The position numbers were made by a program, and so were the translations under genes. From Escherichia phage vB_EcoM_G37-3, in the sequence record MK327941.1: a stretch of 64,000 nucleotides of DNA; one strand, given 5' to 3'. Positions 46,318 through 55,200 of the stretch are shown here, piece by piece; positions within the stretch are counted from its first letter, which is position 1; every line of letters starts with the position of its first letter. The notes below the pieces were generated by a model that made no database searches, was not told where the DNA came from, and saw only the letters and a program-made list of their open reading frames with translations.

Positions 46318-47541
46318 TTACGCTGTCAACTCTTTTTCAAAAGATTTTACGATATACATGATGGTGCTCAATTCGGACGGCGCTACTGTCTCTGTGTAGC
46401 CATCCGGCATATCTTCTTTCGAGATATAGGAAGTTTTACCTTTCATTGCTTCCTTGATTTTGTTCTCTAATTCTAAGATCTTTTGACCGTCTTGTAAAGT
46501 CAATTCATAAAAGATCTCATGATCGAACTTTGAAACACGAGATTGGTTTCTCATGCGCTCATGTGTTTCTTTGTTTGTTATTCCAAATTTCACGCCAACA
46601 AAGGAATCATTGTTGGTTAATTTCTGTATATAAAGAGTTCCTGTCTTTAATGCCTGATAACCATGCTTAGAACACAACGGGCAGCGTGTTCCGCGATTAA
46701 CAAAATTATCAATAGTTACATCCCATTCATGGTTACGTTCGCATGTCAGAAGTATTCTTGTTAATGCACCTTTCCACTTTCCTGAAATCCCAATAAATTT
46801 TAGTCTGTTGGTTTCGCATATTTTTTTAATTTGTTTTAATCGGTCACTTTTTGTTATTGGTGCTGTTCCGCTACATTTGCGACACCGACGACCTAGTTTG
46901 AACTTATCATAACTTTGTTCGTAAATGTGATTATTAGGACACTCAAATTTAAGTTTAGTTTTTGTTCCTCTCCATTCCCCAATTATACCCAAAAATTTAT
47001 AATCTCCTTTATTTTCATTTATATAAGATAAGGAATCTTCTTTATCATGCATCTTGCCCCCGTTACATAAAGGACATCTTGTTTTTTGATGAATGAAATC
47101 TGTATATGTTGGTTGGTATGTGTGTCCGTTTGTACAGTTCATAATGAGTCTTGTTCTGCTATTTTTATACTCCCCACCAACAAAACCAACAAATACATCG
47201 TTTGTTTCTTGTTTTATTCTTTCTATCACATTGTTTGGGTTTAATCTTTGAGAATCAACCACACATTTCTTACACGAAACTTTTTTCCTGATATTTGCTA
47301 GAGTTGATGTGTATTCATGCTTGTTATTACATAATATAAGAGCTTTTGTTTTGAGACCAGACCATTCTCCAACAAACCCCATGAAAGAATAACCAACTTC
47401 CAAACATGAATTTTTTACAACATTTTCCCAATAGAAGGGAGTTTTCGTGTTTCCTTTTATTTCTATACGAATCTCGTGTGCTTGACGTACCAACATATTT
47501 TTATCCTCCGTTGTTTCGATGATTGTATTATACATTACCAC
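46318..47541 (-). CDS. Zinc-ribbon-repeat protein with C-terminal T5orf172 (GIY-YIG-like) domain
   Basis: Four repeats of F.G..GEW.G..T...L.C...H.....Y..F....RC..C; C-terminal GTLYIQKL...VGVKFGITN..THERMRNQ. Confidence 0.5.
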   Translation of the reverse strand: MVMYNTIIETTEDKNMLVRQAHEIRIEIKGNTKTPFYWENVVKNSCLEVGYSFMGFVGEWSGLKTKALILCNNKHEYTSTLANIRKKVSCKKCVVDSQRLNPNNVIERIKQETNDVFVGFVGGEYKNSRTRLIMNCTNGHTYQPTYTDFIHQKTRCPLCNGGKMHDKEDSLSYINENKGDYKFLGIIGEWRGTKTKLKFECPNNHIYEQSYDKFKLGRRCRKCSGTAPITKSDRLKQIKKICETNRLKFIGISGKWKGALTRILLTCERNHEWDVTIDNFVNRGTRCPLCSKHGYQALKTGTLYIQKLTNNDSFVGVKFGITNKETHERMRNQSRVSKFDHEIFYELTLQDGQKILELENKIKEAMKGKTSYISKEDMPDGYTETVAPSELSTIMYIVKSFEKELTA

Positions 47542-48648: not shown

Positions 48649-49325
48649 CTATTTGTTTCGGCTTTTAATTGAGATATTTCTTTACACTCTTTAACTACTT
48701 TAACAAATAATGCTCTTGCTTTTGCGGCGTCAATAACAAGTAGTTTCTTGTACGCCTTCATTTTAACACTATAAGTTTGCCAAATCAAGTCTTTGGCTAC
48801 CTTGTCGTGTTCGTCGATTATATTTAGAAAGCTATCTAACAACATAAACGACTCAAACGATATAATCCGATTTTGCAGTAGTTTAAAGATACCGCTAGTT
48901 TCGGTTGCGGGATTGTATGTAATTAGCTCTTTAAGAGTAACCCCGCGTTTCTCTGAGAAGTATACCAGACTTTTAATGTCATCGTCAAATCGTGTTGCTG
49001 CATCGGTTATCTTTCCTATGTATTCCATATAAAAGCCGTATGCGTCAACATCAGTGATTTCACCTACCCATGCATCGGTATTAGCTACCAGATTGCTTAG
49101 GAATAGGAAGTATAATTCTCTTAGATTGTACTTTTCCGCTAATTTTGCGAAATAATACTTATCTCTGCGTTTATTGAATGCGGCATCAGACAACCGCATC
49201 CTCCAATTGTATTTTACGCAATCATAACGCCCGTTCATGTGAGCTTTCATCATGCAATATAACATATACACAGATTTAGCATTAATTCGCATATCTGGAT
49301 CTGGAGGAAGACGGTTTCTGATCAT
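48645..49325 (-). CDS. 59: Helicase loader gp59
   Basis: Matches T4 gp59 (KSVYMLY...HMNGRYD..KYNW.MR.SDAA..KRRDKY.F.KL). Confidence 0.9.
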   Translation of the reverse strand: MIRNRLPPDPDMRINAKSVYMLYCMMKAHMNGRYDCVKYNWRMRLSDAAFNKRRDKYYFAKLAEKYNLRELYFLFLSNLVANTDAWVGEITDVDAYGFYMEYIGKITDAATRFDDDIKSLVYFSEKRGVTLKELITYNPATETSGIFKLLQNRIISFESFMLLDSFLNIIDEHDKVAKDLIWQTYSVKMKAYKKLLVIDAAKARALFVKVVKECKEISQLKAETNS

Positions 49326-49334
49326 ACATACCCC

Positions 49335-49604
49335 TTAAATATCGAGAGTGTTTGTCGGTTCGTCGATCACTCCCTTCCTGAGCGTTCTATTTACTATACA
49401 TTCTTGTGTGATCTTGTCAATAATGGACACTGGAATATATTTCTGATAGTGACCATATTCGATAGAGTTTTCCTCTACAAACTGCGTTGTCGCTTCAAGA
49501 TAAGTCAATCCATCTTCAACAACCAGTTTTTCGATTGCAAGACCGTTTGCTGTTTTATTCGCGGCTTTTACCGCATGTTCATTAAGCATTGAACACCCGA
49601 TCAT
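49335..49604 (-). CDS. 33: Putative late-transcription accessory protein gp33
   Basis: Assigned by synteny (between 59 and dsbA) and size only. Confidence 0.4.
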   Translation of the reverse strand: MIGCSMLNEHAVKAANKTANGLAIEKLVVEDGLTYLEATTQFVEENSIEYGHYQKYIPVSIIDKITQECIVNRTLRKGVIDEPTNTLDI

Positions 49605-49857
49605 AGAGTTCTACCGCTTCGTCGCGTTCTGCTTCGAAGGTTTCGCGCTGTTGCTGGTGATACAGTTTAAACAGAATGCCCCACATTTTACCATCTACGC
49701 CTAATTCTTCTTTAGCACGCTGTTTGATCTCTTTGATCTTATCGCCATATGCTTCTTGAATGGTTTTCTGATCGCTGGCTTCTTTAATCAGTTGTGCCAG
49801 GGTATTTCCGTGTACATTTTCATCGAATACTACTTTTTCTTTTTTCTGTTCAGTCAT
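49582..49857 (-). CDS. dsbA: Putative DsbA (dsDNA-binding late transcription protein)
   Basis: 91 aa (T4 DsbA 89 aa); synteny only. Confidence 0.45.
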   Translation of the reverse strand: MTEQKKEKVVFDENVHGNTLAQLIKEASDQKTIQEAYGDKIKEIKQRAKEELGVDGKMWGILFKLYHQQQRETFEAERDEAVELYDRVFNA

Positions 49858-49862
49858 AATAT

Positions 49863-50459
49863 TTAACCCTCTTTCGTCATTAATTGAAAACCACGTTCAG
49901 CTTTTGAGATTTCGCTAGGACTTAAATCGTCACCCACATATTCTAGCATCATTTCTCGGATAATGTCAAGTGCTTTTTCATCACCTGATTTTAACTCGAA
50001 CTCAAGTTCATAGTGAGCGTCTCCCATTACTTCGCCGACTTTGCAATAATAGAAAGTGTCTTTGCACATTTCCACTATAGCACCCTCAAGGTCAAGTGTC
50101 AATGACTTGCGGTATGTCATGACTTGCAGTAAAGGAACGATAAGGTCGGAGTTTACGCCTAGACTATCAACATAGTGATAGAAATCATCCATTGTTGAAA
50201 AAGTAATTTCTTCTCGGTTGAAGAGTCCAGATTCACTATCACCTATTTTGACCATGATCAATGATCTATTAACGTCAAGTCGAGCATAAATTCCTTTTCG
50301 ACGCAGTGCATGATCTTCGGTATCATAATAAAATTCGTGTTTTAGAGTGTTAGCACGATCTACTAGATTGCACCCGTCATACATTGCCACCCACAAATCA
50401 CAGATGGTTTCGACGCCAATTTGTGAGTGTGCATAGTATTTTAATTCAAGTTCTTTCAT
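49863..50459 (-). CDS. CYTH-like (triphosphate tunnel metalloenzyme-like) protein
   Basis: N-terminal MKELELKYY (ExExK-type strand) and later ELEFELK; inserted between dsbA and rnh relative to T4. Confidence 0.35.
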   Translation of the reverse strand: MKELELKYYAHSQIGVETICDLWVAMYDGCNLVDRANTLKHEFYYDTEDHALRRKGIYARLDVNRSLIMVKIGDSESGLFNREEITFSTMDDFYHYVDSLGVNSDLIVPLLQVMTYRKSLTLDLEGAIVEMCKDTFYYCKVGEVMGDAHYELEFELKSGDEKALDIIREMMLEYVGDDLSPSEISKAERGFQLMTKEG

Positions 50460-50469
50460 CTGTCAACCC

Positions 50470-51417
50470 TTAGAACTCACCAATTTTCTGCAACATTTTA
50501 ACTAACGCATTTGTTACAAAATAGTTATAAATTTTACCGCGTGGTGCTGGTTTAGATTTCTCCCATGCTAACAAAATTTCATATTCGATGTTATCGGGAA
50601 TAAATTCAAAATCAATAAGTTCGCGGTTTTCGTCAAAGCGTCGTGCTTCTTCCTCTGTCATCAAAGACTTTGGATCTTCGGCATCGAAAATTTGCTCTAA
50701 CCATTTGGTTGCAATTGGTTTAGCTCGTTCTCCTTCAAGTCGTGAGATAATGAAATCACTACGGCACTTGATCGAAGCTACACCGTCTTTTGCGTCACCC
50801 TTAACACATTTTACCATAAGGTCTTTGTAAGGGCTACCATATTTGCATTTCTTCCATGCTTTCTGTACTGGCGCCCACTGTTTCACGTTTTTGTATTTGT
50901 GCAACTGTGTGTAGTCACCATCGCCGGAGTTGATTAGCACCTGACGACCTTCTACAGAAAACTTTTTAGTTAATACAGCGATTATATCATCCGCTTCAAC
51001 TTTGTCAACCTTAATAACGTGATAAGGCATGTTCTCTTTAAACTCTTCGGTGATCTTATTGATCGCAGCAAAGATCATCTCCCAATCACGCGGATCTGCG
51101 TCTCGTTTTTCCTTACGGTTGCGTTTATAGTAAGGGGCGATATCACGTCGCCAGTAACCTTTACTTGAATCAAAGGCAAGTACCGTAATAGGGTATTGCT
51201 CTTTGAATTTTGTCATATTATAACGCATGGTGTCAAGGATAAGATGACGGATCATGCCTTCATTAATAGGATCTTCCGGTTTAAAGGTATGCGAGATAGT
51301 AGCAATCATAAGCTGCGACATATCAATCAAATGCACACCTTCCGGCAGTTTATCTTCTGGATCATCGAAGAAATCATTAAGTGTAGCGGTAGTTTTTGTA
51401 AACGGGTTATACGTCAT
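50470..51417 (-). CDS. rnh: RNase H (5-3 exonuclease)
   Basis: Matches T4 RNase H (GYWRRD.A.YYK.NR, SGDGD.TQLHKY.NVKQW, PPRGKIY.YFV). Confidence 0.9.
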   Translation of the reverse strand: MTYNPFTKTTATLNDFFDDPEDKLPEGVHLIDMSQLMIATISHTFKPEDPINEGMIRHLILDTMRYNMTKFKEQYPITVLAFDSSKGYWRRDIAPYYKRNRKEKRDADPRDWEMIFAAINKITEEFKENMPYHVIKVDKVEADDIIAVLTKKFSVEGRQVLINSGDGDYTQLHKYKNVKQWAPVQKAWKKCKYGSPYKDLMVKCVKGDAKDGVASIKCRSDFIISRLEGERAKPIATKWLEQIFDAEDPKSLMTEEEARRFDENRELIDFEFIPDNIEYEILLAWEKSKPAPRGKIYNYFVTNALVKMLQKIGEF

Positions 51418-51419
51418 AA

Positions 51420-51605
51420 TTAAGTTCTCTCCACTCTCACAACAACATATTCGCCAAACGAGTTAGATACTTCACGATCATACCCGTATTTCTCCATAAC
51501 TCGCAGAATTGCATTGTTTAGTTCTGCGCGAAAATAATTATAATCCTTATCAGGTATTCTGTCAACTATCCATTTTGCACCGTCTGACAAATCAAATTTA
51601 ACCAT
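51420..51605 (-). CDS. Hypothetical protein
   Basis: 61 aa. Confidence 0.45.
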   Translation of the reverse strand: MVKFDLSDGAKWIVDRIPDKDYNYFRAELNNAILRVMEKYGYDREVSNSFGEYVVVRVERT

Positions 51606-51611
51606 AATATA

Positions 51612-52193
51612 TCATCCTCTTTTTGGAAAATTTAAATAAGCATACTCGCCAACTATTTCATGTGCTGCACGGTCATAAGCCTTAGCCGCCTCAACTTCTG
51701 TCTCAAAGTATCCTAGATGTATATTCTTTCGATTGATAACAATATACGCCTTCCACGGCTTTTTCTTGCTTGGTGATAATGATACACCTTTATATTTGCT
51801 ATGGCAAGCCTTTTTCTTTGAGACGTTAAACTGATTTTGCTGTTCGGTTGCTTCTCTCATGTTTGACGGTCTATTGTTAGTTTTGTCTTGGTCTATGTGA
51901 TCTATTCGTTCAACCTGAGTACCATACTCTAAAAACCAGACAACTCTATGTACAAACAGATTAAGTTTATGACCATTGTTGTAAAATGTAAAGTATAAAT
52001 ATCCTTCTTTATGGAGACATACCCTTACCACATCACCTTTTTTGTATATGGACCCTTCTTTTCGGAATCCAGCAGCTACAGAATCCTTTAAATGGTATAA
52101 TATTCCATCGACATGATAGAATCTACCTTTTATCGCTTTCTGTGTCTCGATATCCCAAAATTTTGTTTTTGCCACAACAAACACCTCACACAA
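51612..52193 (-). CDS. HNH-AP2 homing endonuclease
   Basis: HRVVWFLEYG...IDHIDQDKTNNR (HNH) and YKGVS...GYFETEVEAAKAYD (AP2); between rnh and gene 34. Confidence 0.6.
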   Translation of the reverse strand: MCEVFVVAKTKFWDIETQKAIKGRFYHVDGILYHLKDSVAAGFRKEGSIYKKGDVVRVCLHKEGYLYFTFYNNGHKLNLFVHRVVWFLEYGTQVERIDHIDQDKTNNRPSNMREATEQQNQFNVSKKKACHSKYKGVSLSPSKKKPWKAYIVINRKNIHLGYFETEVEAAKAYDRAAHEIVGEYAYLNFPKRG

Positions 52194-52227
52194 TAAATAA
52201 TTTCATATTATAACAGGAGACCCAATA

Positions 52228-55200
52228 ATGGCAGATTTTTCTCAACATTTCAAGGCCACCTTTGGCTTTGACGCTGGTAATGAAAAGGTCGTCAATGTAG
52301 CATACGCAGATAAAAACACATCAACGGATGCGGTCAACGTTGAATTTTTCAATTACCATAATGGTATTACTCAGTATGACACAACTCGCGGTTATGATCA
52401 ATACGGAACTACAATCTATCAAAACCGTCCGTATTATGCAAAAGAAGATATCACAAAGCCAGCGGGTGATTTTGACCCGACGAAATGGCAAGCACTGCGC
52501 AACGATCCACGTTGGGATTATATTGCAGCAACTTCCGGTGATACTCCTTTAAAGTCTGGTGATTATATCGCAGCAGATGGTCAATTTGCAAACTTGACTT
52601 TCTCTATGCCAAACAAACCAGCAGAGGGAGACACTATAACAGTAAAAGATATCGGTGGCAAGTGTGGTGTTAACGAATTATCGTTCTTGAGTTCAGGGCA
52701 TGAGTTTTACCATAACGGTAATGTGTATAACCGAAAATGGTATTGCACTACCCCGTATGCAATGAACTATTTCATCTTTGTTCGTAATCGTTGGCATGTT
52801 TATCAGACAGGAACAGAGCCACGCGGTGTGTACGCACAGCCAGCGATTGATGCTATTCAAATGCAGAATGGTGATCAGGTATTTCGTCGTAGTTCGTTGG
52901 GTAATATTACCTTAGTGCTTCCTAAGTTTGCCAACAATGGCGACATGATCCAGACTACAGATCTTGACGGGTTAACCGCAACCAACCACGTTACGGTTAA
53001 AGTTCATGAGCACGCAGAAGAACAATCAATTGGCACGTCCGGTCTAAAAGAGATTATCGGTAAGCGTAGCGGTCATGGTGTATTCATATTTGACAAACCG
53101 GAAAACTTATGGCGTTTGTGGGATGGTGATCAGTCTGTTCGCTTGAATCCTATCATTAGTGATACTCGCTTATCCCCTAATAGCTATGTTGCAGTATTTG
53201 GTGATCGTGATGTTGCCTTGACTTTACCGACCAATGTCGAGCCGGGTGATCGCATTCAAGTTTCTATGCAGTATATGCACGGAAACCAGACTTGCCGAAT
53301 CATTACCTCAGAAGAGGATACAAAAATCCTTATGCAGAAAAACATGGTTCAGTTTCCTAAGCGTAGCGAGTACCCATTCAATGGGACCGATACATGGACG
53401 GGAGTATCTGAATTGTCTTTCAACGCTGCAAATGATTATGTACCTTATCTGGAGTTCTCTTATTCAGAAGGTGATGATGGTAAGAAATACTGGTTGGTGG
53501 CACATGCTCACCCGATTGTAGAACGAGTAGATCCGACTCGTAAAGATCGTGTTGGTGTAATTGCACTGGCTACCCAGGATGAAACAAACAAAAACCATGA
53601 AGATAATCCTAGCGACGAAGTTGCGGTGACTCCAAAGGTTCTGGCTAACAAAACAGCCAACGAAACTCGACGCGGTATTGCTCGCATTGCGACTCAAGCG
53701 GAAACGCATCAAGATACTGGTTCCAGCTTCCTGGATGATGTTATCGTTACGCCTAAAAAGTTAAATGATTGTGTTGCTACCGAAGCCCGTCGTGGTGTAA
53801 TGGAAATTGCAACTCAACATGAAACCAACGAAGGTTTAGACGATACTCGCGCAATAACTCCTAAGAAGTTAGAAGAACGTCGCGCTTCCGAAGATCTCGC
53901 TGGTATTGCTGAAATTGTTCAGGTTGGCGGTAGTGCTGCCACTCGACGTGGCGAAGCTGGTACAGGGATCTATAACATCAACGACCATGCTAAAATTGTT
54001 ACGCCACAAAACATCAACGAAGTCAAGGCGACCGAAACTTCCCGTGGTGTTGGCTATCTGGCAACTGACGCGGAAGTGCAAGGGGCTACAGAATCAACCC
54101 CGCAAGATGCTTTACTAATCACGACTCGCACGCTAACGAAGCGTACTGCTACAGAATCGCGTACTGGTATCGCTGAAATTGCAACTCAGGAAGAAACAAA
54201 CTTAGGTCAAAGTGATAACCATATCATCACGCCTAAAAAGCTGCATACTCGCCGCGCAACGGAAACTTTACACGGTTTAGCAGAAATTGCAACTCAGTCG
54301 GAATTTGACGCAGGTCGTGACGATGCTCGCATTTCTACCCCATTGAAGATTAAAACCTTCTTTGAGAATGCACAGCGTTTGAAAGTAGATCCGACTCAGG
54401 GGCTTAACCTTACGGGTGACTTGTGGCAAGGTATCACGATCAGCGGTCTTGATGCAACCGAAGACACAAAAGGTGTCGCTAAAGTTGCTACTACTCAGCT
54501 TACGGATGTTGGTCAAGATGATACTACAATCATCACGCCTAAAAAGCTGCAAGGCAAAAAAGCCACCGAAGGTAAAGAAGGTATTATCCGCGTTGGTACT
54601 CAAGCCGAAACCGTGGCTGGTACACTGGCTAATGTAGCAATTTCTCCGAAGAACTTCAAATATGTTGTTCAGACAGAGGATACATGGAAAGCAACCGAAG
54701 CTCGTCGTGGATTCTTGAAAGTTGCTACTCAGGAAAACTGTTTTGTTGGTGATAATCTGCAAGGTTCTACTCAAGAACTAGGAAACTACCAGCATGACGG
54801 AATTGCTGTTACCCCTAAAGGATTAAACTACGCACTTGCTAATTTCTTACCTAAGATGGCAACTGCCCAGAATAGTTTGAAATTGGGTAACGTAGATGCC
54901 GCTAAATGGGCGCGTAGAGACATTGACCAGACCATTGAGAGCAATTACACGTTTAATAAAAACGTTAACGTGAAGGGCGATTTAGAGTGCTTAAAATCAG
55001 GTTCCTTTGAAACTCTGTTTGTGACTAAGAACTCGACTGATGATCCGAGTAATGGTCATCTGGTGTTGGGTGAGCGTGGAGTTGACGGTCACACCGGAAT
55101 TACTCTGCATGGCACAACCGCATCGGAAGGCATGGAAAACTCATGGTCTATTATCGTTGGTGGCACTGGAACATCTCAAGTTGTTGATAGTAATGCTATC

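Follow-up and report, generated by a model that had tools for sequence, protein, structure and literature searches.

The genome of Escherichia phage vB_EcoM_G37-3 (MK327941.1) raises the question of what a T-even phage does with an enzyme of the triphosphate-tunnel type. A 64,000-nucleotide stretch of this record (the window), which is part of an RB49-like T-even phage of the genus Krischvirus, contains between dsbA and rnh an open reading frame (ORF) on the minus strand (49863..50459) that starts with ATG and encodes 198 aa. From the MKELELKYY start and a later ELEFELK strand (residues 151-157), both present in the ORF, the initial annotation took the product to be CYTH-like, expected it to hydrolyse or cyclise nucleoside triphosphates, and suggested that it could act on nucleotide messengers of host defences. 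The answer reached here is narrower. The protein is probably a stand-alone CYTH metalloenzyme that would hydrolyse the terminal phosphate of a small triphosphate by the two-metal mechanism described for YgiF and AtTTM3.

Tunnel fold and active-site residues

The CYTH identity was borne out by a Pfam score above the cut-off, by an AlphaFold2 model and by a structure search, and the match far exceeds what chance would give. Residues 42-190 match Pfam CYTH (PF01928) at 27.1 bits, above the gathering score of 23.2 (E 4.2e-6). Among solved structures, the best match to the single sequence is Escherichia coli YgiF (E 0.044). The AlphaFold2 model, built from 20 homologs, has a mean predicted local distance difference test (pLDDT) of 92.4 and a predicted template modelling score (pTM) of 0.86. 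It comprises eight long strands, a short ninth strand and a C-terminal helix (186-194), arranged as a closed eight-stranded beta-barrel tunnel with a C-terminal plug helix. In a Foldseek comparison with the Protein Data Bank (PDB), YgiF was the top match (E 1.9e-12, TM 0.77), followed by ~40 other triphosphate-tunnel structures. The initial annotation had named structure prediction as a check that could overturn the assignment; it returned the tunnel fold, and a non-tunnel fold was not seen. The search of NCBIfam gave no match to the protein, and no function is assigned to the PHROG that it matches (14893). There is no Pfam match to a CHAD domain either: the protein ends four residues past the plug helix, and dsbA follows 5 nucleotides (nt) downstream.

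The conserved residues of the phage protein coincide with those that mutagenesis showed to be needed for catalysis in YgiF and AtTTM3, two enzymes that share a two-metal mechanism in which glutamates hold both metals and Arg56 or Arg52, respectively, is essential (PMC4641920). Residues were mapped to YgiF with a broader profile that includes bacterial members and is gap-free through the substrate-binding strands. On beta1, ExExK (E-L-E-L-K, codons 3-7, 50439..50453, minus strand) is invariant in alignments A1, A2 and A3, and E3, E5 and K7 correspond to YgiF Glu4, Glu6 and Lys8, the two glutamates being metal 2 ligands. Y-A-R-L-D on beta3 (codons 58-62, 50274..50288, minus strand) was placed by gap-free profile alignment to YgiF and SaTTM; here R60 is equivalent to the catalytic Arg56, and D62 replaces the second arginine, Arg58. 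K71 matches Lys69, which takes part in substrate binding. On beta8, E-L-E-F-E-L-K (codons 151-157, 49989..50009, minus strand) contains E153 and E155, the counterparts of Glu160 (metal 1) and Glu162 (metal 2); for this motif, as for ExExK, the position comes from the alignments and the roles from the literature (PMC4641920). Finally, S-K-A-E-R-G (codons 185-190, 49890..49907, minus strand) lies at the start of the C-terminal plug helix according to alignments A1-A3 and the model helix 186-194. Its K186 and R189 are invariant (A1-A3) and match the phosphate-binding SKAARG plug helix of YgiF. Homologs down to 27% identity show little or no variation at E3/E5/K7, R60, K71, R82/E84, R117, E130/D134, E151/E153/E155 and K186/R189.

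An apparent loss of the catalytic arginine, with Y58 falling on Arg56, came from a HMMER pairwise alignment with a two-residue gap before G56. It was overturned by the gap-free profile, MAFFT, the hairpin register and an hhalign comparison with human thiamine triphosphatase (ThTPase), all of which put R60 on the catalytic Arg. D62 is the equivalent of AtTTM3 Arg54, whose mutation did not strongly affect catalysis (PMC4641920), and the phage protein has therefore lost only a dispensable basic residue.

In the proposed mechanism, E153 would hold metal 1 together with the substrate triphosphate, and E3, E5 and E155 would hold metal 2, which would activate the attacking water. R60 would serve as the catalytic arginine, with the phosphates bound by K7, K71, R82 and R117 as well as by K186 and R189 of the plug helix. 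The predicted products are orthophosphate and the diphosphate form of the substrate.

The pattern of conservation shows that the tunnel is kept while the protein surface turns over. Conservation alternates along every beta-strand: it is 0.95-1.00 on what this alternation indicates to be the lumen side (K40, E42, Y44, D46; Y58, R60, D62; F80, R82, E84; T115, R117, T121, D123; E130, C132, D134, F136, Y138) and 0.35-0.70 on the outer face. Synonymous divergence (dS), blastn break points at 50430 and 50012 and sliding identity together delimit a central mosaic block of approximately codons 11-149 (50013..50429, minus strand). DNA identity to phage Skers is 95-98% as far as 50430 and again from 50012, and ~50% between these points; against Phi1, the central block is 78-93% and the flanks 97-100% identical. 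Overall, the flanks are 93-100% identical. The dS is 0.4-0.55 in the central block and ~0.04 in the last 50 codons. Strong purifying selection was considered as the cause of the near-identical C-terminal 50 residues and rejected, as there are only 0-2 synonymous changes per 17-20 codons; since even synonymous sites are almost unchanged, the C-terminus reflects recombinational mosaicism and not extra constraint. Within the central block, the ratio of nonsynonymous to synonymous divergence (dN/dS) is 0.1-0.44, which indicates purifying selection on the CYTH gene.

Activity, substrate and rival explanations

According to Vogt et al. (PMC8233210), three signatures distinguish class IV adenylate cyclases: ExExK is extended to HFxxxxExExK, the first Arg has given way to a small residue, and ExE has become ExA. 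None of the three is present in the phage protein. Only M1 and K2 precede E3, so that the adenine-stacking HF extension is impossible; R60 is kept and invariant where a cyclase would have a small residue; and ExE (E153, E155) is kept in place of ExA, with E155 invariant. The absence of these signatures narrows the predicted activity to hydrolysis, and of the initial proposal that the protein hydrolyses or cyclises nucleoside triphosphates only the former part survives. Some GenBank records do label the product a cyclase, and a class IV (CyaB-type) adenylate cyclase would make cyclic AMP (cAMP) in the infected cell. Such an activity is very improbable, given the failure of all three diagnostic rules (PMC8233210) and the lack of detectable cyclase activity in YgiF, the closest structure (PMC3440374). 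The product name 'adenylate cyclase' in phages PHB13, AV108 and KMB43 is thus unsupported, and 'inorganic triphosphatase', the label used for the Makalu phages, appears from the motifs to be the better guess.

By homology, the default substrate would be inorganic triphosphate (PPPi). YgiF is specific for PPPi, hydrolyses thiamine triphosphate (ThTP) slowly and leaves ATP, GTP, ITP, pyrophosphate (PPi) and long polyphosphate (polyP) untouched (PMC3440374). The substrate strand of the phage protein differs from that of YgiF. W/YxRxR marks ThTPases, in which the aromatic residue stacks the thiazole ring, and all other clusters have a small residue at this position (PMC8233210). The phage motif is YxRxD (Y58-A-R60-L-D62), with the aromatic residue and the first Arg present and the second Arg lost; it shows neither the RxR nor the small residue two positions before it that characterise YgiF-type cluster 1 (PMC8233210). 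In the hhalign comparison with human ThTPase, whose query sequence was identical to PDB 3tvl, Y58/R60/D62 fall on W53/R55/R57, in an alignment that is short, weak (E 0.04) and anchored on a YYDT motif. The Y58 position is G, S, A or T in all aligned bacterial homologs and small in YgiF, SaTTM and CyaB. Y58 itself is conserved in Krischvirus and the nearest metagenomic relative; the deeper homologs from phages, P0044 and P0046, have Val or Ile instead, and the D62 position is Asp or Asn throughout the phage clade. Further, K40, D62, C132, Y138 and H149 are invariant lumen residues of this clade. Y58 and D62 hint at a natural substrate with an organic group, for example a nucleotide or a thiamine-like moiety, instead of bare PPPi.

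Several points weigh against the hydrolase proposed here. The relationship to YgiF is weak by sequence: a phage-only profile reaches E 0.003, and the E 1e-37 of the broader profile owes much to its bacterial members. The lumen side was deduced from strand alternation and not from coordinates. Y58, D62, C132, Y138 and H149 are unlike the lumen residues of characterised inorganic triphosphatases (PPPases), and substrate or kinetics may differ. In phage vB_EcoM_G2494 (MK327935.1, L014 301-896), a 1-nt frameshift near codon 58 splits the CYTH gene into two annotated ORFs; this may mean that the phage can do without it in the laboratory, although a sequencing error is equally possible. The literature search found no biochemistry on the CYTH protein or close relatives. 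As YgiF contributes only marginally to the PPPase activity of E. coli (PMC3440374), a dedicated phage PPPase is hard to rationalise, and even for YgiF a physiological role of PPPi hydrolysis is doubtful. A house-cleaning role such as the removal of PPPi is speculative; PPPi is made by the E. coli dGTP triphosphohydrolase.

A special case of the terminal-phosphate hydrolase would link it to host defence. The tunnel would be tuned to an organic triphosphate that serves the host as an alarm or immune signal, such as deoxyinosine triphosphate (dITP, Kongming), ThTP, adenosine thiamine triphosphate or pppGpp/pppApp, and would cut off its gamma-phosphate. Tyr58, Asp62, Cys132, Tyr138 and His149 would recognise the stress or immune messenger of E. 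coli, and the fast mosaic surface would be the mark of an arms race against a host factor able to bind or sense the enzyme. Such a role is possible but unlikely. Y58 falls where mouse/human ThTPase has Trp53, which stacks the substrate, and where YgiF, SaTTM, CyaB and the aligned bacterial homologs have small residues, and the phage clade has invariant lumen residues of its own (K40, D62, C132, Y138, H149); however, Y58 gives way to Val/Ile in P0044 and P0046. The CYTH protein changes roughly three times as fast as the neighbouring ones (35-48% versus 69-82% identity in sister-genus contigs), and a mosaic central block with a variable surface is a common pattern in genes of host-virus conflict; yet neutral processes also often make T4-like accessory genes fast-evolving and mosaic, and dN/dS <0.45 gives no sign of positive selection at the level of the gene. 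Immune messengers that bear a triphosphate do exist, and the literature offers dITP (Kongming) and p3diT (Clover). As p3diT restrains Clover, its destruction would harm and not help the phage, and the known counter-measure to Kongming is a deoxynucleoside monophosphate (dNMP) phosphatase, not a triphosphatase. To our knowledge, most immune messengers, namely cyclic oligonucleotides, cyclic ADP-ribose (cADPR) isomers and cCMP/cUMP, have no free triphosphate. Neither experiments nor literature linking CYTH to counter-defence were found, and PADLOC-DB, a library of defence components and not of counter-defence proteins, gave 0 families at E up to 1. The initial suggestion of interference with defence messengers gains no support from the present data, and its scope is narrow.

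Removal of the gamma-phosphate from the 5' end of RNA is less likely still. An RNA or primer 5'-triphosphatase could act on the 5'-ppp ends of primase-made primers, which the neighbouring RNase H handles, or on host or phage transcripts, thereby steering their processing or decay, and the CYTH gene does stand immediately after rnh in every phage that carries it. However, the gene order of the T4-like core is conserved whatever the function, T4 manages without a CYTH gene, and YgiF and other bacterial tunnel enzymes are reported as PPPases or nucleotide triphosphatases and not as RNA triphosphatases (PMC4641920, PMC3440374). Nor are the Cet1-like RNA triphosphatases (mRNA_triPase family) the closest in fold and sequence affinity. 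It is also improbable that the gene is a decaying or non-catalytic passenger with a dead tunnel. The frameshifted copy in G2494, the highly divergent alleles and the absence of the gene from T4 and from cultured phages outside 58 Krischvirus records could be taken in that sense, but the ORF is full-length in 57 of those 58 records and intact in all metagenomic homologs, its dN/dS is that of a constrained gene, and its slot is kept across sister genera. Further, the catalytic and lumen residues are all invariant and it is the outer faces that vary.

Gene neighbourhood and distribution

The coordinates and the Pfam assignments of the neighbours agree with the placement of the 198-aa ORF between dsbA and rnh. 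T4 RNase H (rnh) lies at 50470-51417 and Phage_DsbA (dsbA) at 49582-49857, both on the minus strand, and gp33 and gp59 follow. The minus-strand order is 32, 59, 33, dsbA, the CYTH ORF, rnh, a 61-aa ORF and an HNH-AP2 ORF, after which gene 34 comes on the plus strand. The CYTH ORF stands 10 nt past rnh, and dsbA starts 5 nt past its stop; from this tight spacing, co-transcription with the replication and late-transcription genes rnh-dsbA-33-59-32 is inferred. A ribosome-binding site, AAGGG (50467..50471, minus strand), was read from the sequence 7 nt ahead of the ATG, and this Shine-Dalgarno element overlaps the stop codon of rnh (50470-50472). The same TAAGGGTTGACA..ATG arrangement precedes the CYTH homolog of contig L005. 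The statement that T4 has no gene here was confirmed by NC_000866, where the 8-nt junction between the end of dsbA (149778) and the start of rnh (149787) contains none. The ORF is 99% identical to RB49p245 / RB49ORF244c, and the 2.4 kb around it are 96-98% identical to ELT4, FL15, RB49, JSE and others. Recent capture of the host ygiF gene is ruled out by the ~24% identity, the missing CHAD domain and the lack of a compositional anomaly (GC 38.9% in the CYTH gene versus 40.4% in the window).

Sigma-70-like promoter matches are enriched at 49300-52300: there are 18 (14 minus-strand) where shuffled sequences give 8.7 +/- 2.3, and seven of the minus-strand sites have a perfect TTGACA. One promoter-like site (50466-50438) overlaps the start of the CYTH ORF, so that transcription would begin inside it; another (49969-49940) lies in the conserved 3' block of the gene, ~80 nt ahead of dsbA.

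Among 50,697 phage records, the CYTH gene is present in 58, all of them Krischvirus and always between rnh and dsbA. When tblastn was run with the window protein, P0044 and P0046, no cultured phages other than these 58 Krischvirus records were found, and the three loci in IMG/VR are all on Krischvirus-like contigs. The deeper metagenomic homologs P0043, P0044 and P0046 (31-48% identity, depending on the aligner) each stand immediately before dsbA-33; P0043 is preceded by rnh, and P0046 by an ORF fragment similar to the C-terminus of rnh. The RNase H, DsbA and gp33 proteins of these contigs share 69-82% identity with their window counterparts, compared with 49-58% for T4, and the contigs therefore represent sister-genus phages. 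These keep the slot rnh-CYTH-dsbA-33, with a CYTH protein of 35-48% identity.

Two other proteins matched the phage enzyme. The homolog P0045, which is 31% identical, lies on an archaeal-looking metagenome contig (L007 4797-6606) immediately behind a PRK/uridine-kinase gene; plant TTM1/2 combine these two domains in one fused protein. An RNA ligase gene and a NUDIX gene are located just downstream. In P0051 (3923 aa), five separate stretches match residues 127-176 of the phage enzyme; they could stem from repetition of the ExExE strand region or be an artefact of composition.

The surroundings of the gene contain other variable features. A 193-aa homing-endonuclease-like ORF with HNH_3 and AP2 domains (51612-52193, minus strand) separates gene 34 from the small ORF that follows rnh; RB49, Phi1 and Skers have no such ORF at this spot, where alignments break at 51623 and resume at 52193. 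Next to gene 32, a 407-aa ORF (46318-47541, minus strand) contains four CapR-homology / treble-clef zinc-finger repeats. Only short patches of 70-75% align to relatives, which makes it another variable spot, and the ORF at the corresponding place beside gene 32 of RB49 is labelled 'endonuclease'. Within rnh, identity to RB49, Phi1 and Skers drops from 91-100% to 71-78% over 90 nt (50544-50633), apparently a small recombined segment specific to the G37-3 phage. ARAGORN found no tRNA or tmRNA genes across the 64-kb window (1-64000).

Relation to known triphosphate-tunnel enzymes

The family assignment as such was already known: the RefSeq record of RB49 notes 'similar to ... ygiF' for RB49p245, RB49ORF244c was listed with a CYTH domain in 2006 (Nolan, Petrov, Karam; PMC1524935), and the protein database carries a precomputed Pfam CYTH match for most homologs. 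No functional work on phage CYTH proteins or Krischvirus triphosphatases was found in the literature. What the present analysis adds is the exclusion of the cyclase reading, YxRxD and the other lumen residues of the phage clade, the fixed slot in sister-genus phages and the fast-evolving mosaic central block. Explicit motif rules correct a recurrent mis-annotation as 'adenylate cyclase'. Further, the analysis delineates a small clade of phage tunnel enzymes that are YgiF-like but have no CHAD domain, and that combine an altered substrate strand and an unusually fast-evolving surface with a fixed slot in the T4-type replication cluster. As the physiological substrates of bacterial CYTH enzymes are largely unknown (PMC8233210, PMC3440374), a phage that keeps such an enzyme under purifying selection offers a tractable system for finding a natural substrate. 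If that substrate were a triphosphorylated alarm or immune nucleotide, the protein would represent a new enzyme class in phage counter-defence, and the first counter-defence or host-takeover role of any CYTH enzyme.

CYTH domains recur in viruses. RB49-type phages are not known to modify their DNA bases, so that a need to clear unmodified nucleoside triphosphates (NTPs) is not an obvious rationale for their enzyme. For jumbo-phage CYTH enzymes, the clearing of unwanted NTPs has been proposed (Iyer and co-workers, PMC7824862). The CYTH proteins of uncultured Caudovirales, Aeromonas phage 65.2, D3 and Aeh1ORF004c and the triphosphatases of giant-virus capping enzymes are distant from the phage enzyme (TM 0.3-0.55, <=16% identity), and none of them is located in the rnh-dsbA slot.

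Among characterised proteins, CyaB (Y. pestis 2fjt, 3n0y) differs from the phage protein, which has no HF extension and keeps both the first Arg and ExE. The mammalian 25-kDa ThTPase (PDB 3tvl, 5a64) shares the ExE and, like the phage protein, has an aromatic residue two residues ahead of the catalytic Arg (W53, against Y58 in the phage protein). However, its cluster stands apart from the other triphosphatase clusters (PMC8233210), the phage motif is YxRxD instead of W/YxRxR, the similarity is limited to a 22-residue stretch (hhalign E 0.04), and the aromatic residue is not conserved in the deepest phage homologs. With YgiF (PDB 5a60/5a61), the phage protein shares ExExK, R60 (Arg56), K71 (Lys69), E153/E155 (Glu160/162) and the SKxxRG plug helix at ~24% identity. 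It differs from this CYTH-CHAD protein in having no CHAD domain (198 aa versus 433), in Tyr58 and Asp62 where YgiF has Gly54 and Arg58, and in the additional lumen residues C132, Y138 and H149 of the phage clade.
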